DNA from: Patescibacteria group bacterium
GTDB taxonomy: Bacteria > Patescibacteriota > Patescibacteriia > Magasanikbacterales > GWA2-37-8
Direction: 5' to 3'
Length of the DNA stretch: 8,607 bases
NCBI GenBank assembly: GCA_004321885.1
Contig: SCQK01000024.1
Location: 1 to 8,607 of the forward strand
In this document: positions 1 through 8,607 of the stretch, in pieces
Position numbering within the stretch: position 1 is the stretch's first letter
How the letters are laid out: each line of letters begins with the position of its first letter
Translations under genes and position numbers: made by a program
Notes under the pieces: model-generated
What the model saw: only the letters and a program-made list of their open reading frames with translations
The model's database searches: none
What the model was told of the DNA's origin: nothing

Positions 1-346
1 CCCCCAGATTGGTAGAGAGTTCATAGTCGAGACTATACGGCGAAAAGAAGTGCGATGGCGTGATGCAATGGTACCTGACGATTTTTACGCCGCCGGCATG
101 CCGTAATATGTCCCATCCTGACTGCCAATGGGTCGCATGGTGATAGATAGTGAGGCATTCGTCTGTTGCCGCCCAATCGGGGTAGTCCGACAACGGGGAG
201 GACAGCCAACTGAGGTTATCGGACCATTGATGCGCAAATACTCTGGCAGGGATGCCGACGTTTCTTAGCGCTCCACACATGCCCAGGATATCGTTTCCTA
301 CCGCATCCCCATCCTGGAACATTGGAGCGAGAAGGGCTACCCGCAT
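1..346 (-). CDS. Partial CDS (N-terminal ~115 aa; continues past the window edge), possible glycosyltransferase-like protein
   Basis: Absent from the ORF track because it runs off the window. Minus-strand ATG at 346..344 is preceded by GGGAG with a 5-nt spacer (gcGGGAGaagtcATG). The frame stays open for all 115 codons down to position 1 (MRVALLAPMFQDGDAVGNDILGMCGALRNVGIPARVFAHQWSDN...). The N-terminus loosely resembles the start of GT-B (GT4-like) glycosyltransferases; this functional call is weak. It is on the same strand as the coiled-coil gene and 114 bp downstream of it, which fits the same operon. Confidence 0.45.
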   Translation of the reverse strand, partial: MRVALLAPMFQDGDAVGNDILGMCGALRNVGIPARVFAHQWSDNLSWLSSPLSDYPDWAATDECLTIYHHATHWQSGWDILRHAGGVKIVRYHCITPSHFFSPYSLDYELSTNLG

Positions 347-460
347 GACTTCTCCCGCCTGCCAACCTAATCTGTGTGGAATATGTCGAAAATTTACTGA
401 AGGGTAGTATGGCGAACGCAGAGAAGCCAACGGGAACCCTGCACGACCGACCTGCTGTCG

Positions 461-1159
461 CTACTCAACCTCTGTTTTTCGTTTCGTCTGCTCGGCGCCG
501 GCCAATACCTGATCCTCAAGCTGGCTGTAGATCTGCGCAATGGCGTGGTCATACTCGACCCTCAGGCTCTCGATCCGGTCCCAGGCCTCGGTGAGCCGAT
601 CCCGGAGGTAAAGGAGATTTGCCAGTTGATTGTCGAGATCGGTATTTCGCTTCGCAAGCTCATCGAGCCGGAGCTTCAGGAGGCCCGCCGCGTAATTGTG
701 CCGAGCCTCATGCTCTTCGAGCGCTTGGCGGTGCCGATTCATGTGCTCCTCGAGCGCTTGGCGGTGCCGACTCGCATGCTCCTCGAGCGCGGGTAACAGG
801 CGATTCAACAGCTCGACAAGGCTTGTGTTGAACGCCTCCTGTCGAACGAAGATCGCCCGGTGATACGGAGCCAATATCCGCCTCAACCATCGCTTCACTC
901 GTTCCTTCAGAGCGCTTCCGCCGGCGGCAATGACCCCCTGGGGTTTCGGATCGCGGAGCCGGTTCAGCATGGTCAGATAGTGGCCCAGCGACTCGATAAG
1001 CGCCTGGCCAGGAGGGGACTCAGGGGGTTCGATAGGGCGTACTTCGTGGCCCTCCGCCTCCGATGGGCGCTGCGCCCGTTGCCTCTCGAGATGCTCCCTT
1101 ACTGTGGCCATGATCTTTTCGACGTCGATCTCGCGATCGTTACCATCAATGATTTCCAT
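461..1159 (-). CDS. Hypothetical coiled-coil protein (232 aa) encoded directly downstream of wzt; candidate chain-length/scaffold protein
   Basis: Complete ORF with ATG at 1159..1157 and GGGGA 6 nt upstream (caacaGGGGAcactcaATG), 27 nt after the wzt stop. The C-terminal two thirds are rich in E/R/L/Q/H with heptad/hendecad-like periodicity (ALEEHASRHRQALEEHMNRHRQALEEHEARH..., LDELAKRNTDLDNQLANLLYLRDRLTEAWDRIESLRVEY) and show no TM segment. It contains an in-frame 33-bp tandem repeat. I recognise no enzymatic motif. Confidence 0.6.
   Translation of the reverse strand: MEIIDGNDREIDVEKIMATVREHLERQRAQRPSEAEGHEVRPIEPPESPPGQALIESLGHYLTMLNRLRDPKPQGVIAAGGSALKERVKRWLRRILAPYHRAIFVRQEAFNTSLVELLNRLLPALEEHASRHRQALEEHMNRHRQALEEHEARHNYAAGLLKLRLDELAKRNTDLDNQLANLLYLRDRLTEAWDRIESLRVEYDHAIAQIYSQLEDQVLAGAEQTKRKTEVE
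711..790. repeat. In-frame 33-bp tandem repeat (~2.4 copies) inside the coiled-coil gene
   Basis: Units are 711-743 ctcttcgagcgcttggcggtgccgattcatgtg, 744-776 ctcctcgagcgcttggcggtgccgactcgcatg, then a partial third copy ctcctcgagcgc from 777. Identity between full units is about 28/33. They encode the 11-residue repeats LEEHASRHRQA / LEEHMNRHRQA / LEEHEARH. Confidence 0.65.
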
Positions 1160-1186
1160 TGAGTGTCCCCTGTTGACGACGACCGA

Positions 1187-2872
1187 TCATTCCGCAAGGA
1201 TTTCCCGGATGGCAAGTCCCAACTCCCGCGTATCGCGGCTTCCTGGGATCGTGTCGCAGGGCCTCCAGAAGGAATCGAGGGAAATGCCGATCGGGATGAT
1301 CTGATTCACATACGCGTCCGGAATCCGCACAGACAGGACCTGCGGCCCAGAATTCTTCAGGCTAAACCGGCCGATGACTTTCTCCAGGATCTGCACCGCG
1401 CCATCGAGTGGTCTATCGCCGGCGTCGAGTCTCGTCATGACGACCTCCACTCGAAGGTCATTCGTCTTCGGCCGGAGCGCAAAGGCACAGTTCTGTCGGG
1501 ACCATCGGAACGCCCCCGCCTCGTTCCGCTCCCCCTCGTACCACCCCTGGAGCAGGAACTTCTCGGACCGTTCATCCATCGACAGGCGGGCGGGAGCATC
1601 CTCAAACATCTCTCCGAACGAACTCTCTTCCAGCTCGCCGGGCCGCTTGCTCCACCGCACGACCGGGTAGAGTTTCGCGACGCCGACGAACTGAAAATCG
1701 CCGGAGGGTATGACCTTGAACGAGAGCACCCGATCGACCCAATCAAAACACTCGTGAACGTGAACATCGAGCGTGTGAATCGCCACCGTGATAGTATAGT
1801 CGCCCGGACCCACGTCCAGCACCATGGTGAACTCGATCTCTAGAACCTCTCCAGATACGAAGGCACCAAGGCGGTGGCCGAAGTGAAACGTGTTCGTCCC
1901 AAAGACATCCAGACCAAGGCGGTCCCGAATCAACATGCCTACCGTCGGGTCCTCGATCGCCTCGAAGAACATCGCGCGGATTGCAACGGTGACCTTCTGG
2001 CCGGCGACGAGTATGCCGCGACTCTCGCCGCGTTCATCCAGAAGCTCGACCCGCGAGATGATGGCGCCGAAGTTGCCGGATCGGCGGCCGGCGCCCCCCC
2101 CCTCCTGCTCAACGCCACGAGTGATCATGTGGGGCTTGCTTCCGCTGCTCTGTTTGGCGATTAAGGCGTTATAGAGGTCCAGGACGTCATCAGGTTTGCC
2201 CACCTCGATCACTCTTCCTTCGTGGAAAAGTGCCACCGCGTCGCAGAGCGACTTGACGGCCACGAGGTCATGCGATGCGATCAGTGCCGTGACCCCTCGC
2301 TCTTTAAATGCCTTCATCCGCTTGGCGCACTTTTGCTGGAAGTACGCGTCGCCCACGGATAGGATCTCGTCGATCAAGAGCACCTGCGGGTCAATGCTTG
2401 CCGCCAGCGCAAATCCCAGGCGAAGCTGCATCCCGGCGGAATAGGTTCGCATGGGCAAATCGATGAATTCCCCCAACTCGGCAAAGGCGACGATTTCATC
2501 TAACCGTTCCACAATCTCTTCGCGAGAAAGCCCGAGCAGTCTTCCATTCATCAGAATGTTTTGCCGTCCTGTAAACTCGCCGTGAAATCCGGTCCCTAGC
2601 TCCAACAGGCTGACGACCCGATCTCCCATTTTAAAGGAACCTTCGGTCGGCTTCGTGACCCCCGTCAAGATTCTCAACAGTGTGCTTTTCCCGGCGCCGT
2701 TTTGGCCGATAACCCCCAGCGCGACGCCGGGAGGGATCGATAGGTTGATATTTCTGAGCGCCCAGAATTCGCGATGACAGATCTTTCGCCCGCCGGAAAG
2801 CCATTCCTTTATACGGTCGGCCGGCCTGAGGTAGACCTTATATCGCTTGGACAGGTTGGTGATGTCAATCAC
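1187..2872 (-). CDS. wzt: O-antigen/glycan ABC transporter ATP-binding protein Wzt (KpsT/TagH family), unusually long at 561 aa with an extended C-terminal region
   Basis: GTG start at 2872..2870 with GGAGG 7 nt upstream. The N-terminus matches the Wzt/KpsT/TagH pattern (NLSKRYKVY...DRIKE...EFWALRNINLSIPPGVALGVIGQNGAGKSTLLRIL). Walker A is GQNGAGKST, the family-specific signature is YSAGMQLRLGFALA, and Walker B is LLIDEILSVGDAYFQQKC. About 300 residues follow the nucleotide-binding domain, consistent with a Wzt-type C-terminal glycan-binding beta-sandwich plus a further ~140 aa. It sits 27 nt downstream of wzm. Confidence 0.9.
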   Translation of the reverse strand: MIDITNLSKRYKVYLRPADRIKEWLSGGRKICHREFWALRNINLSIPPGVALGVIGQNGAGKSTLLRILTGVTKPTEGSFKMGDRVVSLLELGTGFHGEFTGRQNILMNGRLLGLSREEIVERLDEIVAFAELGEFIDLPMRTYSAGMQLRLGFALAASIDPQVLLIDEILSVGDAYFQQKCAKRMKAFKERGVTALIASHDLVAVKSLCDAVALFHEGRVIEVGKPDDVLDLYNALIAKQSSGSKPHMITRGVEQEGGGAGRRSGNFGAIISRVELLDERGESRGILVAGQKVTVAIRAMFFEAIEDPTVGMLIRDRLGLDVFGTNTFHFGHRLGAFVSGEVLEIEFTMVLDVGPGDYTITVAIHTLDVHVHECFDWVDRVLSFKVIPSGDFQFVGVAKLYPVVRWSKRPGELEESSFGEMFEDAPARLSMDERSEKFLLQGWYEGERNEAGAFRWSRQNCAFALRPKTNDLRVEVVMTRLDAGDRPLDGAVQILEKVIGRFSLKNSGPQVLSVRIPDAYVNQIIPIGISLDSFWRPCDTIPGSRDTRELGLAIREILAE

Positions 2873-2899
2873 CGGTGCGCCTCCCTTGTCGGGCCTGCC

Positions 2900-3811
2900 T
2901 CATACCTCATCAACGATTTCATCTTTCAGGCGGAAGAAGATTGCGGACCCTATGGTCAGGCTTATCAGGGACAGCATGGCTGCTATCCCAAGGGTTGACC
3001 ACGATGGGAAGGCGCCGTCGAGGATCACCGAGTGATATCCCCGGATGAAATGATACATGGGATTGAGTTGAAAGAAGCCCCTCGCGCCCTCGGGCAATAT
3101 GCTCTCCAGATACACGACAGGAGTCAGCCAGAACCACACCTGTAGCCCGATCCCGACCAACTGCGAGATGTCCCTGAGAAAAACATTCAATGCGGACAGA
3201 ATCAGTCCCAGTCCGAAGGCGAAGGTGAACTGAAGGATGAGCAGGACCGGGAGCGCAAGATAGGCAACTCTGAGCCTATGTCCGGTCAGGACGAGAAAGA
3301 CAAGGAAAATAGAGAACCCGATCAGGAAGTTGACGAAGCTCGAAAAGGCAATTGAGCCGCCCAGCAGCTTCTTGGGAAAGCTCATTTTTTTGAGGAGCCA
3401 CGCCTGATCCAGAAAGACCGTGGTCGAACGACTGATCACCTCGACGAAAGCGTTCCAGGGCAGAAGGCCGGCGCACAAATATATGCTGTAGCCATACACG
3501 TCGCTCATCCCCGGGAGCTTCGCCCCCATGACACGCGAAAAAACCATGGTATAGATGATAATCATCGCCAAAGGATGAATGACGTTCCAGACGATTCCCA
3601 TGAGGGAGCCGGCATATCGACTTTTGAGGTCCCTGACCAAAAAATTCAGAAGCAGGTCTCGGTGACCGACCATATCGTCGATCGTAGTCTTTAGATACGA
3701 GGGAGAAAACCGATTCGGGCGAGACGGCGTCCCAGATGCGGGCAGAGACGTGTGACGGTGATGGCCTGTTTCGAATCGCGGTCCATGAAAAGAAAAAACC
3801 GGTTTGCTCAC
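2900..3811 (-). CDS. wzm: ABC-2 type polysaccharide exporter permease Wzm (KpsM/TagG family)
   Basis: The motif LLLNFLVRDLKSRYAGSLMGIVWNVIHPL is the characteristic N-proximal motif of ABC-2 permeases (compare RELIWNLVRRDLKVRYKGS). It is followed by about six hydrophobic TM segments. The GTG start at 3811..3809 has AAGGA 6 nt upstream. An alternative internal ATG at 3673 has no SD, so I prefer 3811. The gene is directly upstream of wzt, the classic wzm-wzt arrangement. Confidence 0.88.
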   Translation of the reverse strand: MSKPVFSFHGPRFETGHHRHTSLPASGTPSRPNRFSPSYLKTTIDDMVGHRDLLLNFLVRDLKSRYAGSLMGIVWNVIHPLAMIIIYTMVFSRVMGAKLPGMSDVYGYSIYLCAGLLPWNAFVEVISRSTTVFLDQAWLLKKMSFPKKLLGGSIAFSSFVNFLIGFSIFLVFLVLTGHRLRVAYLALPVLLILQFTFAFGLGLILSALNVFLRDISQLVGIGLQVWFWLTPVVYLESILPEGARGFFQLNPMYHFIRGYHSVILDGAFPSWSTLGIAAMLSLISLTIGSAIFFRLKDEIVDEV

Positions 3812-4039
3812 TTCACATCCTTGGCCTTCGATGACTGCGCTCTATAAGAAACTCTCCGGCGTGACCTCTTCGATCTTGACAGTCTGATCCCCGGTTGCAC
3901 CCTTTGCCGGGAGAATCATATCCTGAACGCCTTGGAGGAGGCGAACGAAACGCTGAGCTCGCAGATCCAGAAGGTTATCCCGTTATGACCCTCGAATCGG
4001 CGGCGTGAGGACCCCAGGCACGGAAGATTTTCTGAGCAA

Positions 4040-4090
4040 CTCTTTTATTGACGTTTGAATTTATCACATTAAATCGACTGCGGGCAAGGT
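4040..4090 (-). promoter_or_regulatory. AT-rich core of the 324-bp wzm-upstream intergenic region; putative promoter of the wzm-wzt operon
   Basis: Non-coding gap 3812-4135 between the GT2 stop and the wzm start. The only AT-rich patch is plus 4041-4080 (tcttttattgacgtttgaatttatcacattaaatcg). On the minus strand it reads TTGCCC-17 nt-ATAAAT (-35 at 4087..4082, -10 at 4064..4059), a weak sigma70-like match. The exact elements are not resolvable by eye. Confidence 0.25.
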
Positions 4091-4135
4091 TCTTTTGCGC
4101 CTATAGGTAACACATTCGCCCTCCGTAACAGGTTG

Positions 4136-5116
4136 TCAGGAGCGTTCTTTTGGTGGAGGGGCTTCGTCGGACGAGGGCGGCAATCCGTAGACGGTCCTCA
4201 CTAAATACAGCGGCCTGGCTTTCACCTCTTCCAACATGCGACCGATATATTCTCCGATTACTCCCAAGCAAATGAGTTGAACGCCCGCCATGAAAAGCAC
4301 GATGGTGACCAGGGAGGCCCAGCCGCTCGGGTGTATGGTGATCCCCAGGAATACTTTTAAAACAAAGATGAGTATCATGGCTAAGAAACCGATCAGAGCT
4401 GAAACGAGCCCCGCTATGCTCACCAATTGCAGGGGAACGACGGAAAAACCCACGAAACTATCGAAGGCGAGTCGGATAAGCGCCATAGTGCCGACTCTTG
4501 ATTCGGCGTCATAACGCGGGTTTCTGCCAAGCACTATGCCTGTCTGGCGGAAACCCACCCAACTGCGCAGGCCGGGAATGTAACGATTTCGTTCGGGCAG
4601 TTGATTGATAATTCGGACTATGCGGCGGTCCATGAGGGCGAAACTCCCGGCCTCTTCAACGTCGATCCCGGAAAATTTCTTATTGATCTTATGGAACAGC
4701 CGGAACGCGAGGCCTTTCATCCGGGAAACATTACGTTTGCCCCGCACCGCATAGACTACCTCCCAACCCTCTTGCCATTTTTCAAGAAAGCGAAGGATAT
4801 GTTCAGGATCGTCTTCTAAATCCGCGTCCATGACGATGGCGCAGTCTCCCTGGGCGTAGGAAAGACCGGCAGAAATGGCTCTGTGGTGGCCGAAATTTCT
4901 GGACAAGTCCACCACGGCAATCCGGGAGTCGCGGCCTTGCAAGGATAGCAGGACAGGCAGGGAGGAATCCGTGCTACCGTCGTTGACAAAAATAAAGCGA
5001 AAGTCGTAGGTCCTTTCTTGATTCGCTGCGGCGCACAACTTTTGGTAGAGCAGAGGAAGGCCCTGCGCCTCGTTGAAGAGGGGCACAATGACATCTATTT
5101 TTTTGTTGGTCGTCAA
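4136..5116 (-). CDS. Glycosyltransferase family 2, polyprenyl-phosphate sugar synthase type (DPM1/ArnC/GtrB-like) with C-terminal TM helices
   Basis: The N-terminal GT-A domain is KKIDVIVPLFNEAQGLP...FIFVNDGSTDSS...VVDLSRNFGHHRAISAGLSYAQGDCAIVMDADLEDDPE. The DxD motif is DAD, and SRNFG...AGL is typical of the Dol-P-Man synthase/ArnC/GtrB family. The C-terminus has two hydrophobic helices (LQLVSIAGLVSALIGFLAMILIFVL...LVTIVLFMAGVQLICLGVIGEYI), as in GtrB/ArnC. I call the start at the TTG 5116..5114 (MTTNKKIDVIVP...). It has GGAGG just upstream (4-nt spacer, a little short) and forms a TTGA overlap with the upstream stop. The ORF-track start at 5158 (also TTG) has no SD and would overlap the upstream gene by 46 nt. 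Confidence 0.85.
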   Translation of the reverse strand: MTTNKKIDVIVPLFNEAQGLPLLYQKLCAAANQERTYDFRFIFVNDGSTDSSLPVLLSLQGRDSRIAVVDLSRNFGHHRAISAGLSYAQGDCAIVMDADLEDDPEHILRFLEKWQEGWEVVYAVRGKRNVSRMKGLAFRLFHKINKKFSGIDVEEAGSFALMDRRIVRIINQLPERNRYIPGLRSWVGFRQTGIVLGRNPRYDAESRVGTMALIRLAFDSFVGFSVVPLQLVSIAGLVSALIGFLAMILIFVLKVFLGITIHPSGWASLVTIVLFMAGVQLICLGVIGEYIGRMLEEVKARPLYLVRTVYGLPPSSDEAPPPKERS

Positions 5117-6126
5117 ACAGCCTCCGGAATGTGAGCCGTTGAACTTTCCGTGAACCAATCGGCCAAGCGTTTTAAACCGTCCCGGTAGAAAATGTGTGGC
5201 TCGTAACGTAATTTGCGCCGGGCCTTTTCAATGTCATAGACATGATCCATTGTAAAATAACGAATAGTCTTTGGGTGAATCAGTCTTAGCGCGGGTGGCT
5301 TCAGCGCCTGGGGCACGAGGCGTAAGGCTCGAGCGGTCAAAGCCCCGAAGAGGTATGGAAGCCGTCGTGGAGGAGGGCTTTGCAGTAATTGAGCCAGATA
5401 GTCAAAAATGTTTTCTATTGTGGGCGCGCACGGCCCGGCCAGGTGATACATTTGACATCGCGCGTGGGAGCCGGCCTCCAAAGCCAGCAAGACGCCTTCG
5501 ACCACGTCCGAGACATGCGTGACATGCAGCCGCGCCTTGCCGTTTCCCAGAATCCAGAAATTTCCCGATTGGATTTTTCGCAGGGTTTCAGGCCAACCGT
5601 ACAGCATGCCTTCGCCATACAGTTGCGCAGGACGAAGGATGATCCAGTTGATATTGTTCAGCGAGCGGATCAGGCGTTCCGCTTCTTGCTTAGAGCGGCT
5701 GTATTTGGAAGGGGAGGTTTCGTAAGGCGTTTCCTCATCCGCTGGGCCTGATCGCGTCGGTCCTAGAACGCTTACCGTGCTGATATGGATAAAAAGAGCC
5801 TGTGGATTTTTTGCGCATGCCGCCTCTACAACATGTTTTGTTCCTTCCACATTCACAGAGCGGAATTTGCTGTAGGGCAGATGTTCATAGTTGCTCATCA
5901 GCGCCGCGCTATGAATGACGGTGTCTGGGGGGTCAATGGAGTGTTTCCAGATGTGCGGGCGCTCCAAATCACCTTCAACGACTCGGATACCTTGGCGTCT
6001 CCAGTGGTCGATCCCCTTTTGATTGGCAGGCCGGATTAACGCTTGGACATCATGGTCGAGTTGAAGGAGAGCGTTCGCTACACGGCCGCCCAAAAAACCT
6101 GTTATGCCGGTTAAAAAAATTTTCAA
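5113..6126 (-). CDS. NAD(P)-dependent epimerase/dehydratase-family SDR oxidoreductase (~337 aa)
   Basis: The Rossmann start MKIFLTGITGFLGGRVANALL (GxxGxxG) falls exactly where the proposed TTG start lies (6126..6124), overlapping the rSAM TGA stop as TTGA. The catalytic YxxxK is YSRSK, with the upstream S-containing strand HISTVSVLG. The ORF-track ATG at 6264 would add 46 non-Rossmann residues and overlap the rSAM gene by 141 nt, so I disfavour it. This start has no good SD (AGAGGA is about 15 nt upstream), consistent with coupling/reinitiation. Confidence 0.85.
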   Translation of the reverse strand: MKIFLTGITGFLGGRVANALLQLDHDVQALIRPANQKGIDHWRRQGIRVVEGDLERPHIWKHSIDPPDTVIHSAALMSNYEHLPYSKFRSVNVEGTKHVVEAACAKNPQALFIHISTVSVLGPTRSGPADEETPYETSPSKYSRSKQEAERLIRSLNNINWIILRPAQLYGEGMLYGWPETLRKIQSGNFWILGNGKARLHVTHVSDVVEGVLLALEAGSHARCQMYHLAGPCAPTIENIFDYLAQLLQSPPPRRLPYLFGALTARALRLVPQALKPPALRLIHPKTIRYFTMDHVYDIEKARRKLRYEPHIFYRDGLKRLADWFTESSTAHIPEAV

Positions 6127-7496
6127 GAGCTGATGATCAGTTCCTCTGGCGGGCGAGGAATTTCTATTCGTATGTTGCGTTGCGTTGGAAAATAATCCTT
6201 CCAAATCCGGCGAAGGAGGGAAAAAAACCAGCGCGGTCTGTAGTAGTAGCTGACATAGGCCCATTCCTTCAGCGCTTCCAGTTGCGCGGGGCTAAGCTGC
6301 GGGTGCATCACGACGGGGGTAAAGCAATCCATCTTTTCATAGTCGTCCGTCAAGAGACCGTCTCCGACCATCTTATAATAAGCCGTTCCCGGGAATGGGG
6401 TGGCAAGATAAAACATCGCGGCATGGGTATTGAGTTGTTTGGCGTATTCCACCGTAGATCGGATTTTTTCCGGACTGTCTTCAGGCAGGCCCAGGACATA
6501 AAACGCGCATACCCTTAGTCCGATACCGTCGCAGAATTTGACGATGCGTTCTTGATGCTCGACGGGGACGGGAGCCCGGCCTATTTTTCTCAAGATAGCC
6601 TCATCCGCGGACTCGATGCCCACATTGATGACGCGCAGGCCGGATTCATAAAAAATATCAATCAGCTCTTCGTTCAAGAGGTCTAGCCGGGTTTCGCAGG
6701 CCCATTTAATTTTAATGCCTCGTTGAATAATACCCTCAGCGATTTGGCGGGCTCTTTTGCGATTGACCGAGAACAAGGGATCGCGAAACAACAGCGCCTT
6801 CGCGCCGAATGTATTCGCCGCGACTTCGATTTCATCCAATACCTTTTCCACGTTCCGCTCCCGCCATTGGTAGTTGACCGGGTAAGGGCAGTAATCGCAG
6901 GAGTAGACGCAGCCCCGAGAGGATAACGCCACCAGGAAGGGGGTTTCACGCAGAGATGGAAAATACGAGTATTCTTTAACGGGAAAATATTCCCACGCGG
7001 GAAAAGGCAAGGTATCCAAATCGTCGATAGGCCGACTGATCACGACGCCCTGGAGATTGTTCCCGCGCGCCAGTTTCAAGCCCGCTTCTTCCACTTCGCC
7101 GGCGATTAGGAAATCGGCGTAGGGAAGAAAAAGATTGGGTCGGAAGGTGGCGAAGGGCCCCAGGAAGCCGATTTTGATGTTCGGCCTTTTCTCTTTTATG
7201 CGCTGAGCCCAGCGGATTTCGTTTTTATAGTCAATCATACTGGCATGCATTAAGACGAGATCAGCATCCGGGATTTCATTGGTCAGCAGTTGAACTTCGT
7301 GGCCGTGATCGCGGAAAATGGCCGCCAGATAGGCGAAATAAAGGATCGGCACTTTTTCGCCTTTTTTTTTGACGAGTTCAATCATTCGTGCCGGCAGCGA
7401 GCGGCCGATATGGAAAGCCCAGCCGTAACCGCCCATAAAGTCTTTATTCACGCACTCCGGACGTTGAGCGGTTATTTCTAACAATGCGACCCTCAT
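6123..7496 (-). CDS. B12-binding-domain radical SAM enzyme (class B radical SAM), 457 aa
   Basis: ATG at 7496..7494. The N-terminal roughly 150 aa form a Rossmann-like cobalamin-binding domain (VKKKGEKVPILYFAYLAAIFRDHGHEVQLL...NIKIGFLGPFATF). It is followed by the canonical radical SAM cluster motif CxxxCxxC (ALSSRGCVYSCDYCPYP) and a TIM-barrel region (GAKALLFRDPLF..., INVGIESADEAILRKIGR). The fold class is confident. The reaction is unknown; the family includes methyltransferases, ring-contraction enzymes such as HpnJ/OxsB, and others. Confidence 0.9.
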   Translation of the reverse strand: MRVALLEITAQRPECVNKDFMGGYGWAFHIGRSLPARMIELVKKKGEKVPILYFAYLAAIFRDHGHEVQLLTNEIPDADLVLMHASMIDYKNEIRWAQRIKEKRPNIKIGFLGPFATFRPNLFLPYADFLIAGEVEEAGLKLARGNNLQGVVISRPIDDLDTLPFPAWEYFPVKEYSYFPSLRETPFLVALSSRGCVYSCDYCPYPVNYQWRERNVEKVLDEIEVAANTFGAKALLFRDPLFSVNRKRARQIAEGIIQRGIKIKWACETRLDLLNEELIDIFYESGLRVINVGIESADEAILRKIGRAPVPVEHQERIVKFCDGIGLRVCAFYVLGLPEDSPEKIRSTVEYAKQLNTHAAMFYLATPFPGTAYYKMVGDGLLTDDYEKMDCFTPVVMHPQLSPAQLEALKEWAYVSYYYRPRWFFSLLRRIWKDYFPTQRNIRIEIPRPPEELIISS

Positions 7497-7565
7497 TGTT
7501 TCATCTCATCAATAAGATGGTTGCGATCACAAACAGTAACAGTTGGAAGAAGAGTCTATTTTTCA

Positions 7566-7713
7566 GCACTTAGGAGCCTGTCCTGTAAACCCCTTGTTGT
7601 GGTTCGACAGGCTCACCACGAACGGAAAAACGTCATTCTTTTGATTGCCTATACCGTTCGCCCTGAGCGTGTCGAAAGGTGAACGGCGGTTTACAGGACA
7701 GGCTCTTAGCATT
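7566..7713. repeat. About 148-bp imperfect palindromic element (MITE/ERIC-like, or a highly structured leader RNA) with 18-bp perfect terminal inverted repeats and nested inner inverted repeats
   Basis: The left arm 7574-7591 gagcctgtcctgtaaacc is the exact reverse complement of the right arm 7688-7705 ggtttacaggacaggctc. The arms extend imperfectly to 7566 and 7713, for about 23 bp with 2-3 mismatches. Inner inverted repeats are cgaacgg (7620-7626)/ccgttcg (7654-7660), gtggt (7600-7604)/accac (7614-7618) and ttcgaca (7604-7610)/tgtcgaa (7670-7676). The element lies between the aldolase stop and the rSAM start. Confidence 0.55.
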
Positions 7714-7719
7714 GTTTTA

Positions 7720-7750
7720 AAAAAATATAGCTCCTGTCAGGCAATGTCAA
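7720..7750 (-). promoter_or_regulatory. Candidate sigma70-type promoter for the rSAM-SDR-GT2 operon
   Basis: The minus strand reads ggaGTTGACAttgcctgacaggagcTATATTttttt. It has a perfect -35 TTGACA (plus 7750..7745) and -10 candidates TATATT (15-nt spacer), ATATTT (16) or TATTTT (17). The predicted TSS is near 7712, giving a roughly 215-nt leader that contains the palindromic element before the ATG at 7496. Spacer length and the -10 hexamer are ambiguous. Confidence 0.3.
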
Positions 7751-7838
7751 CTCCTTTCACTGCCGCGGTCTCTGTAGAATCAGGTTGTACATGAGAGACG
7801 CGAACGTGAGGTTCGCCCGGAAGCTGTAGTCGACGACG

Positions 7839-8552
7839 TCACCCACGTGCACCCGCTTGATCGACGAGGGGGGGCAGGTCTGTCGCTACCTCCCCGTCTG
7901 GCGTCCCGGCCCGGTACGTCTCGAAGAACGCCCTATTTCGACTCACGTCCGCATCCTCGAGCGGATGCGCGCCGCCCAGTATCTCGGCTCCGATATAGAT
8001 CTTGGCCAGCCGCTCGACCTCGAGCGCCCGACGCATCGCCTCGGCCAGGTGGCGGCCAACTACAACCACGCCGTGATTGGCGAGCAGGACAGCGTTGCCG
8101 CACGACCCAAGTTCGCGCAGCACAACCTCGGCCAGCTCAGGGCTTGCGGATGGTGCATAGGTCGCTGTCGGGATTGGGCCGATATCCGCCGCCTCGTCGA
8201 GGAGGACGGGGATCGTCTTGCGGGCCACCGCTACGGCTGACGCCCACGTCGAATGGTGATGGATGACCGCATTGATGTCCGGGCGAGCCTGGTAGATGGC
8301 GACGTGCAGCCGCCACTCGCTCGTCGGCTTCCACCGACCTGTCGCGCGACCGGACTCGATCTCTACCTGCACGAGGTCTCGCTCGGTGAGCGTCCGATAG
8401 TCCTGACCCGTCGGGGTCATGAGGACGCTGGTTCCATCCCCGCATCGCGCACTGATATTCCCCGACGTCCCGTCTGTCAGCTCAGACTTAACCAGCCGCC
8501 AGCCCACCTCGATGATCTGTTGTGAGAGTTTCACGCGGGCCTCTCCCTCCAC
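7839..8552 (-). CDS. Class II aldolase/adducin-family protein (FucA/AraD/MtnB-like metal-dependent aldolase/epimerase/dehydratase)
   Basis: GTG start at 8552..8550 with GAGG 4 nt upstream. The conserved phosphate-binding motif GTSGNISAR is near the N-terminus, the metal-binding histidines are in AVIHHHSTWASAVAV, and the glycine-rich helix GNAVLLANHGVVVVGRHLAEA matches the class II aldolase fold. Length is 237 aa. The sequence is GC-rich, about 67% locally. Confidence 0.85.
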   Translation of the reverse strand: MEGEARVKLSQQIIEVGWRLVKSELTDGTSGNISARCGDGTSVLMTPTGQDYRTLTERDLVQVEIESGRATGRWKPTSEWRLHVAIYQARPDINAVIHHHSTWASAVAVARKTIPVLLDEAADIGPIPTATYAPSASPELAEVVLRELGSCGNAVLLANHGVVVVGRHLAEAMRRALEVERLAKIYIGAEILGGAHPLEDADVSRNRAFFETYRAGTPDGEVATDLPPLVDQAGARG

Positions 8553-8607
8553 CGAACCTCATTGCCTCGACAGGCAATCCCCAAGTGCCGCTCTACACTG
8601 AATTCTG

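Follow-up and report, generated by a model that had tools for sequence, protein, structure and literature searches.

Genes of the locus

The stretch of DNA analysed here, called the window throughout, is 8,607 nucleotides (nt) long and comes from a Patescibacteria group bacterium (NCBI GenBank assembly GCA_004321885.1, contig SCQK01000024.1, positions 1 to 8,607 of the forward strand). It holds seven complete genes, all on the minus strand, and the start of an eighth. Our interest lies in three consecutive genes which encode a radical S-adenosylmethionine (SAM) protein (rSAM), a short-chain dehydrogenase/reductase (SDR) and a family 2 glycosyltransferase (GT2), and which the list of open reading frames (ORFs) and the sequence itself place at exactly 4136-7496:

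6123..7496, minus strand: rSAM, 457 aa; ATG at 7496, stop TGA at 6125-6123
5113..6126, minus strand: extended SDR, 337 aa; TTG start, TTGA overlap with the rSAM stop
4136..5116, minus strand: GtrB/ArnC-type GT2, 326 aa; TTG start, TTGA overlap with the SDR stop

An earlier note on this DNA had described these as coupled minus-strand genes with 4-nt TTGA overlaps, a description with which the coordinates, the ribosome-binding sites and the overlaps found in relatives all agree. At the first junction (TTGA, 6126-6123) the rSAM gene ends AGC TCT TGA and the SDR starts at TTG 6126-6124, with a Shine-Dalgarno-like GAGGAA 13 nt upstream and the Rossmann motif four codons downstream (M-KIFLTGITGFLGG). 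An alternative SDR ORF from ATG 6264 would add 46 residues without a match in Pfam or among solved homologues, and the Pfam Epimerase match begins at residue 49 of this longer version. At the second junction (TTGA, 5116-5113) the SDR ends GCT GTT TGA (5115-5113) and the GT2 starts at TTG 5116-5114; a Shine-Dalgarno-like GGAGG lies 4 nt upstream of this TTG, the conserved strand IDVIVPLFNE begins five residues after it, and the alignment to GtrB begins at residue 6 of the protein read from it. An alternative GT2 ORF from TTG 5158 has no ribosome-binding site and its extra residues are unmatched.

A public contig of 3974 nt (L006; related loci are given by their L numbers) is identical in sequence, and its gene call uses the same SDR start. 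Exact-sequence searches matched this contig alone, the rSAM with its stop codon and the Wzt ORF having no match on record. For the GT2, that call places the start at a GTG (L006:2535, equivalent to window position 5086), 30 nt after the TTG; this is probably a mis-call, because a start at the GTG would lose the conserved first beta-strand (IDVIV). In relatives from other lineages the rSAM/SDR junction is a 4-nt ATGA overlap (L089, L001, L009 and L010), as is the SDR/GT2 junction in L089. Since such overlaps recur at the same junctions in other lineages, translational coupling is a conserved feature of these genes and not a product of chance.

The radical SAM protein

The rSAM has an N-terminal Rossmann-like ('B12-binding-like') domain, followed by a radical SAM core with the motif C196xxxC200xxC203. 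This CxxxCxxC is invariant across homologues, and an N-terminal motif, C-[IV]-N-[KR]-D-F-M-G-G-Y-G-W, is strongly conserved. Besides these, C15 and C267 are invariant among 32 homologues and C322 and C391 nearly so; the four could be ligands of a second iron-sulfur cluster.

The protein matches Pfam Radical_SAM with 60 bits and B12-binding with 33.8 bits against a threshold of 32.1, which is marginal, and the latter match is missing from most homologues. Among NCBIfam models the best is HpnJ (TIGR03471; 182.1 against a cutoff of 577.6, aligned residues 76-441), followed by BchE (124 against 481) and AprD4 (NF033070; 121.1 against 500), none of which is a methylase. Six relatives likewise reach no curated family, and HpnJ scores among relatives run from 121 to 182. 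On these profiles the rSAM is placed as a member of a large unnamed family related to HpnJ, BchE and AprD4.

An AlphaFold2 model of the rSAM (predicted local distance difference test score 90.6) was compared with solved structures using Foldseek. The closest fold is AprD4 (6fd2), with a template modelling (TM) score of 0.81 both ways and an E value of 3.3e-27 over 466 aligned columns; a sequence search of the PDB also finds AprD4, at E 6e-27. The next-best folds are the cobalamin methylases TsrM, TokK, CysS and MgmA, at TM scores of 0.57-0.67. AprD4 has a Rossmann-like domain as found in cobalamin enzymes, yet it binds no cobalamin (PMC12931638). The class B (cobalamin) label that the rSAM had been given thus appears apt for its domain layout and not as a demonstrated cofactor, because the B12-binding match is marginal and the closest fold, AprD4, carries the same domain without cobalamin.

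The family is large, with 782 matches at E<=1e-10 among 8000 candidates scored. Genomic relatives were confirmed in 256 cases, with an Elusimicrobia metagenome-assembled genome (MAG) as the nearest genome, at 69% identity; other carriers belong to the Omnitrophota, Planctomycetota, Acidobacteriota, Nitrospiria, Rokubacteria, Patescibacteria and several DPANN archaeal groups, and include the cultured Pyrinomonas methylaliphatogenes K22 (Acidobacteriota).

The SDR and the glycosyltransferase

The SDR matches Pfam Epimerase (118 bits), 3Beta_HSD (84) and NAD_binding_4 (82), and reaches no named NCBIfam model, its scores for OleD (113 against 580) and HpnA (102 against 367.65) both falling below cutoff. 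Its assignment as an SDR is borne out by the TGxxGxxG motif and the Ser-Tyr-Lys set (T6, G7, G10, G13, S116, Y142 and K146). Among 29 SDRs that follow rSAM orthologues T6 is conserved in 93% and the other six residues are invariant, so that, as judged by conservation, the catalytic set is intact. Close relatives are few: in 5.8 billion proteins there are only four, at 47, 44, 42 and 39% identity, and three of them are placed beside an rSAM orthologue (47%, L088; 42%, L089; 39%, L007). Beyond these, identity is 34% or less, to proteins labelled dihydroflavonol reductase (DFR), farnesol dehydrogenase or 3-beta-hydroxysteroid dehydrogenase (3-beta-HSD). The SDR is probably a ketoreductase, resembles ketoreductases of lipid or hydrophobic substrates, and looks as if it co-evolves with the rSAM. 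From general knowledge of SDRs, the arginine that ends its strand 2 (ALIRP) suggests NADP(H) as the cofactor.

The GT2 matches Pfam Glycos_transf_2 with 97 bits, and its translation shows a DXD-type motif (DAD, in VMDADLEDD) and two hydrophobic stretches near residues 235-310. Residues 6-312 of its 326 align with the solved Synechocystis GtrB sll0501 (5ekp) at E 1.2e-73, and residues 5-310 with ArnC (9bhc) at E 4.5e-49; both matches take in the juxtamembrane region and the two C-terminal transmembrane helices. By homology it certainly belongs to the polyisoprenyl-phosphate glycosyltransferases of GtrB/ArnC/DPM1 type, as had been proposed. The NCBIfam equivalog models PgfS (211 against 500) and ArnC (194 against 529) are not reached, and these scores mark it as a family member that is the orthologue of neither. 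Its homologues number at least 7996 at E<=1e-20 and are typically 43-54% identical. We considered whether it might be specific to the module and rejected the idea, the GT2s of related modules (48-50% identity) being no nearer than thousands of others. None of the three proteins reaches any curated cutoff, in keeping with the earlier description of the trio as one of unassigned function.

The two closest GT2 relatives on long contigs (L090 and L091; 50% identity) also adjoin radical SAM genes. The first (L090:4245-9152) has a B12-domain radical SAM gene, an rSAM orthologue (48% identity), the GT2 and PMT_2, without an SDR; the second (L091:7001-12557) has the GT2, a methyltransferase, a SPASM-domain radical SAM gene, a B12-domain radical SAM gene and a second methyltransferase.

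The module in related loci

The context of the rSAM was surveyed in 86 distinct loci, with hidden Markov models (HMMs) made from clusters of neighbours and run against all stop-to-stop ORFs. The next gene after the rSAM, on the same strand, is an SDR in 35 of the 86, a set that spans Elusimicrobia, Omnitrophota, Planctomycetota, deltaproteobacterial MAGs, Patescibacteria and DPANN archaea. These 35 loci have a GT2 within 5 kb in 25 cases, of GtrB type in 14, and a GT-C gene (YfhO or PMT_2) in 13. The earlier note had named conservation of the trio as a unit in related genomes as a test of its reading; the unit that is conserved is the rSAM with its SDR rather than all three genes together.

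In a further 22 of the 86 loci a DegT/DnrJ aminotransferase takes the place of the SDR. All are from Acidobacteriota or unclassified-bacterium MAGs, their rSAM identity is 34-42%, and 15 of the 22 also have a VTT/DedA-domain gene. This version, by its gene content, looks like a parallel, amino-sugar form of the module. The DegT-type loci are L049, L056, L062, L064-L067, L071 and L073-L086 (an example is L062:10001-13318), and they include Pyrinomonas methylaliphatogenes K22. Two single loci differ again, with a short GT2 (L008) or what scores best by HMM as a YfhO-like gene (L003) immediately downstream of the rSAM, and in 8 of the 86 loci the contig ends after the rSAM.

GT-C genes, which the earlier note had proposed to look for, stand beside the module in L089, L001, L003, L004, L034, L035, L039, L042 and L090. 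The arrangement is most compact in L089 (66% identity), where a YfhO-like gene (1068 aa), the rSAM, the SDR and the GT2 are all ATGA-joined amid housekeeping genes; L001 (66%) has the rSAM, SDR, GT2 and a YfhO-like protein of 1043 aa, and L004/L005 (54%, Omnitrophota) the rSAM, SDR, GT2 and a 586-aa membrane protein. In L034, L035, L039 and L042 the genes are YfhO, PMT_2, rSAM, SDR and AsnB-like, with a GtrB-type GT2 upstream in L035 and L039. The large YfhO-like proteins of L089 and L001 are full-length homologues (E 3e-77) and share N- and C-terminal segments with clear YfhO. The GT-C call for the L089 protein rests on its Pfam YfhO score of 30.2 against 28.5 together with the local similarity to clear YfhO, and a comparison of this protein with PDB sequences gave nothing significant.

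In L004/L005, L008, L009, L016 and L032 (Omnitrophota, Planctomycetia and DPANN) the surroundings of the orthologue include between three and six paralogous radical SAM genes with a B12 domain, among which GT2, GT4 and methyltransferase genes are interspersed. This gene content points to extensive radical tailoring of glycans in these lineages.

Proposed function

We propose that the trio would form the cytoplasmic half, the one that makes the donor, of a three-component system (GtrB plus GT-C) for glycosylation outside the cytoplasm, in which the lipid-linked sugar is tailored by a conserved rSAM/ketoreductase pair. We give this model an even chance, a grading that sums over either order of substrate, the sugar being modified on the lipid carrier or ahead of it. 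The GT2, judging from its family, would load undecaprenyl phosphate (undP) with a hexose or N-acetylhexosamine taken from a nucleotide sugar. The rSAM would then abstract a ring hydrogen to give a keto, most likely keto-deoxy, sugar intermediate, and the SDR with NAD(P)H would reduce the ketone to a deoxy or epimerised sugar, following the logic of AprD4 and AprD3. The modified polyprenyl-phosphate sugar would finally be flipped and put on a surface polymer by a GT-C enzyme of YfhO or PMT_2 type; in this organism the polymer may be the glycan exported by the adjacent Wzm/Wzt transporter described below.

That the product of the rSAM is a keto sugar is suggested by the two alternative partners of the enzyme, because a ketoreductase-type SDR and a pyridoxal phosphate-dependent aminotransferase both act on carbonyl groups. 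The earlier suggestion had been of a methylated, epimerised or rearranged sugar, and the gene context points to a narrower keto-sugar chemistry, by reduction or transamination. Aminoglycoside biosynthesis offers a precedent for the second of these, where a DegT-family aminotransferase acts after the rSAM dehydrogenase BtrN. For the first, AprD4 and its NADPH reductase AprD3 take off the C3' hydroxyl (PMC5461906), and by analogy the SDR may be a dedicated, AprD3-like reductase of the rSAM.

As to when the tailoring would occur, we favour the polyprenyl-phosphate carrier, because AprD4 and HpnJ use hexosamines on a non-nucleotide aglycone, the SDR is like lipid ketoreductases, and DedA genes stand beside the DegT version, DedA proteins having been identified as C55-P flippases (PMC12893004). 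Tailoring at this level has a direct precedent, since in the three-component decoration of an ABC-transporter-made O antigen a cytoplasmic SDR epimerises undP-ribofuranose (PMC11127046). More tentative is the narrower claim of direct action by the rSAM on a sugar linked to polyprenyl phosphate.

Several observations weigh against the model as a whole. The identity of the rSAM to AprD4 is only 19%, and the chemistry of AprD4 or HpnJ would not be transferable to it, because it falls far short of the cutoffs of both family models. As a generic member of the GtrB family, the GT2 stands no nearer to its counterparts in related modules than to thousands of other homologues, and the short GT2s (~240 aa) of many loci give weak and mixed NCBIfam matches (PgfS, ArnC, PpgS and dolichyl-phosphate hexose transferase, and also PgaC), so that their reading as polyprenyl-phosphate transferases is suggestive. 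Neither an SDR nor a DegT gene directly follows the rSAM in 19 of the 86 loci. The close relative L003 (68%) has the rSAM, a GT2 and a YfhO-like gene without an SDR, and L087 (L087:1721-4294; 75% identity) has a GtrB-type GT2, the rSAM and then a SPASM-domain radical SAM gene, again with no SDR; the SDR is not obligatory even in close relatives, because in L087 a SPASM-type radical SAM protein stands in its place. The ORFs and Pfam matches of the 8.6-kb window include no GT-C transferase, and there is no GtrA/GtcA-type flippase among its ORFs, the gaps holding no ORF of useful size. The rSAM and SDR, moreover, could act on a lipid-linked sugar or on a nucleotide sugar before transfer.

The second of these orders, the main rival, in which the rSAM and SDR would tailor a nucleotide sugar that the GT2 then loads, as ArnA/ArnB act before ArnC, has several points in its favour. 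ArnC, the best-known relative of the GT2, takes an already modified UDP-sugar; DegT-family aminotransferases are established as usually working on nucleotide-linked keto sugars; and the transferase comes last in the gene order rSAM, SDR, GT2. We nevertheless find it doubtful. The nearest characterised relatives of the rSAM, HpnJ and AprD4, use sugars on a non-nucleotide aglycone, and the kin of the SDR outside the module are of DFR, 3-beta-HSD, OleD and HpnA type and not nucleotide-sugar epimerases or dehydratases, neither point being decisive. A different chemistry, the first possibility listed in the earlier note, would be cobalamin-dependent C-methylation as by GenK or Fom3; the SDR would then serve another step of the pathway as an ordinary epimerase or reductase. 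The N-terminal domain scoring just above the Pfam B12-binding threshold and the cobalamin methylases among the next-best folds speak for this reading, but it seems unlikely to us given that the top three curated similarities are all to non-methylases, that the best fold by a wide margin is the cobalamin-free AprD4 and that most homologues lack the B12-binding match; it also leaves the alternation between SDR and aminotransferase partners unexplained.

The leading position of HpnJ among curated families (182 bits, over residues 76-441) raises two further readings. Contraction of the ring of a lipid-bound hexose has been proposed for HpnJ and calditol synthase (PMC13459092). The rSAM might do likewise, turning a lipid-linked hexose into a five-membered carbocycle (cyclitol) head group, one hydroxyl of which the SDR would adjust. 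Such a lipid head group would be stable and would not serve as a glycosyl donor. This reading strikes us as improbable: the rSAM does not reach even a third of the HpnJ cutoff, a phosphate ester of a carbocycle is no donor for a GT-C enzyme yet GT-C genes recur beside the module, and the proposed ring contraction needs neither a reductase nor an aminotransferase yet one of them follows the rSAM in 57 of the 86 loci. The other is the hopanoid side-chain module, with an HpnJ-like rSAM and an HpnA-like SDR, that the earlier note had named as its alternative. HpnJ and HpnA are indeed among the top NCBIfam matches, but the scores are far under cutoff (HpnJ 182/577.6, HpnA 102/367.7), the GT2 beside the pair is of GtrB type and not HpnI or HpnB, and neither the window nor the Pfam-annotated neighbourhoods of relatives contain squalene-hopene cyclase or other hpn genes (shc, hpnH, hpnI, hpnK). 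The rSAM family is common in DPANN archaea, Patescibacteria and Omnitrophota, which to our knowledge are not known to make hopanoids. We therefore rejected the hopanoid reading on HMM cutoffs and gene context, and consider it hardly credible.

Neighbouring genes

The other features of the window are as follows:

7839-8552, minus strand: class II aldolase
7497..7838, minus strand: non-coding leader upstream of the rSAM, 47% GC
3812..4135: gap of 324 nt between the GT2 stop and the longest Wzm ORF
2900..3811, minus strand: Wzm-type ABC-2 permease, Pfam ABC2_membrane 68 bits
1187..2872, minus strand: Wzt-type ABC ATPase, Pfam ABC_tran 68.5 and Wzt_C 123 bits (residues 263-400)
461-1159, minus strand: coiled-coil-like ORF, 232 aa
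2-346, minus strand: eighth ORF, ATG at 346, running off the window

Wzm and Wzt, a permease and an ATPase with a Wzt_C domain, are identified by their Pfam matches as an ABC-transporter glycan exporter; the NCBIfam scores of Wzm for Wzm/RfbD (57) and KpsM (48) are below cutoffs. They are neighbours of the trio, tied to it by adjacency alone. We considered whether they belong to the conserved module and rejected this, a tblastn search of about 85 other loci finding Wzt or Wzm near the rSAM in only two (L013 and L048). The functional link that the earlier note had drawn between trio and exporter thus comes down to adjacency across the 324-nt gap. Nor does its suggestion that the Wzt C-domain reads the modification made by the trio fit the topology. 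Wzt_C acts on the cytoplasmic side, reading chain-end marks before export. Because GT-C decoration comes after export (PMC11127046), recognition of the modification by Wzt_C is mechanistically unlikely.

The tail of Wzt past Wzt_C is about 160 residues long (window 1187-1690), and the last 167 aa of the protein have no Pfam match. Directly downstream lies the 232-aa ORF, also without a Pfam match, which has a coiled-coil-like tandem repeat, LEEHxxRHRQALEEH; the protein might be a chain-length or terminator component of the Wzm/Wzt system. The eighth ORF (MRVALLAPMFQDGDAVGNDILG...) has no significant Pfam match; by eye its start has a tentative resemblance to GT4-type glycosyltransferases.

Within the leader, a promoter scan in which the number of sites was not above shuffled expectation finds a sigma-70-like site, TTGACA-17-TATTTT, at 7750-7722, which is at most suggestive of a promoter. 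No ORF of at least 40 aa fits entirely within the gap at 3812..4135, which is also free of Rfam matches and terminator-like sites. The Rfam search of the window as a whole matched no RNA family, and a scan of 3500-8000, which takes in both gaps, found no terminator. The trio and its leader (4136-7838) have a GC content of 0.47-0.53 and a third-position value (GC3) of 0.56-0.62, below those of the aldolase (0.65; GC3 0.75) and of Wzt and the coiled-coil gene (0.585-0.60; GC3 0.71-0.72), and the trio may have been horizontally acquired.

Relation to known systems and significance

A close parallel for the pair of rSAM and SDR is that of AprD4 and AprD3, a radical SAM 1,2-diol dehydratase and an NADPH reductase, which carry out the C3' deoxygenation of paromamine in apramycin biosynthesis; such a two-enzyme logic would apply to the rSAM with its SDR. 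AprD4 shares its length, domain layout and fold (TM 0.81) with the rSAM, and its substrate is a sugar ring on a non-nucleotide aglycone; the trio differs in lying among surface-glycan genes (GtrB and GT-C) and not in an aminoglycoside cluster. HpnJ and the calditol synthase Cds are proposed to act on a hexose put on a membrane lipid by a GT2 (HpnI in the case of HpnJ), but the trio has no hopanoid or archaeal tetraether context, and the SDR or aminotransferase and the GT-C partners seen here are absent from the HpnJ and Cds pathways.

The described three-component systems (GtrA/GtrB/GtrC, CsbB/GtcA/YfhO, ArnC/ArnT and PgfS/PgfE/PgfM of S. mutans) have in common with the trio a GtrB-type polyprenyl-phosphate transferase and, in relatives of the trio, a GT-C partner beside the module. 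The Citrobacter system for undP-pentofuranose, which has the SDR epimerase ORF13, offers a precedent in its cytoplasmic SDR, which works on an undP-linked sugar and is encoded beside an O-antigen locus of the ABC-transporter type. Unlike the trio, no such system found in the literature searched has a radical SAM enzyme, and unlike the full systems the window has neither a GT-C enzyme nor a GtrA-type flippase. A further likeness of the proposed route is to DprE1/DprE2, which epimerise decaprenyl-phosphoribose: the sugar is oxidised to a keto sugar while on its polyprenyl-phosphate carrier, and an SDR-type reductase completes the epimerisation. The oxidising enzyme in that case is a flavoenzyme instead of a radical SAM enzyme, and phosphoribosyl pyrophosphate (PRPP) supplies the sugar via a different transferase family.

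In agreement with the earlier statement that no characterised pathway combines these three activities, our literature search found no paper on such a pathway, and at the level of full text it found no description of a radical SAM enzyme within a glycosylation system of this kind. The only two co-mentions of radical SAM and YfhO were in unrelated genome and transcriptome reports, and recent reviews of cobalamin-type and lipid-modifying radical SAM enzymes list no such enzyme. The superfamilies of all the parts and the overall logic of the pathway are already known; the novelty lies in pairing an rSAM with an SDR (or an aminotransferase) for tailoring, and in how widely this pair is distributed.

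Periplasmic glycosylation of the three-component kind ranks among the main sources of diversity in surface antigens. Its lipid-linked donors were taken to be simple sugars that undergo, at the most, epimerisation by a flavoenzyme or an SDR system. If the proposed model is correct, radical SAM tailoring on, or just before, the lipid carrier would be a new class of chemistry for this pathway, and a large unnamed radical SAM family would gain a function. If it is a lipid-linked glycosyl donor that the rSAM edits, it would be the first radical SAM enzyme known to do so, and deoxy or amino sugars would be made on the carrier by the rSAM with an SDR or DegT partner, independently of nucleotide-sugar pathways. 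The module is compact, at three or four genes, and so within reach of heterologous expression. Members of its rSAM family occur mostly in uncultivated phyla, about whose cell envelopes next to nothing is known, and the model, if true, would mean a widespread and unrecognised route to surface-glycan diversity in the Omnitrophota, Elusimicrobia, Acidobacteriota, Patescibacteria and DPANN archaea.

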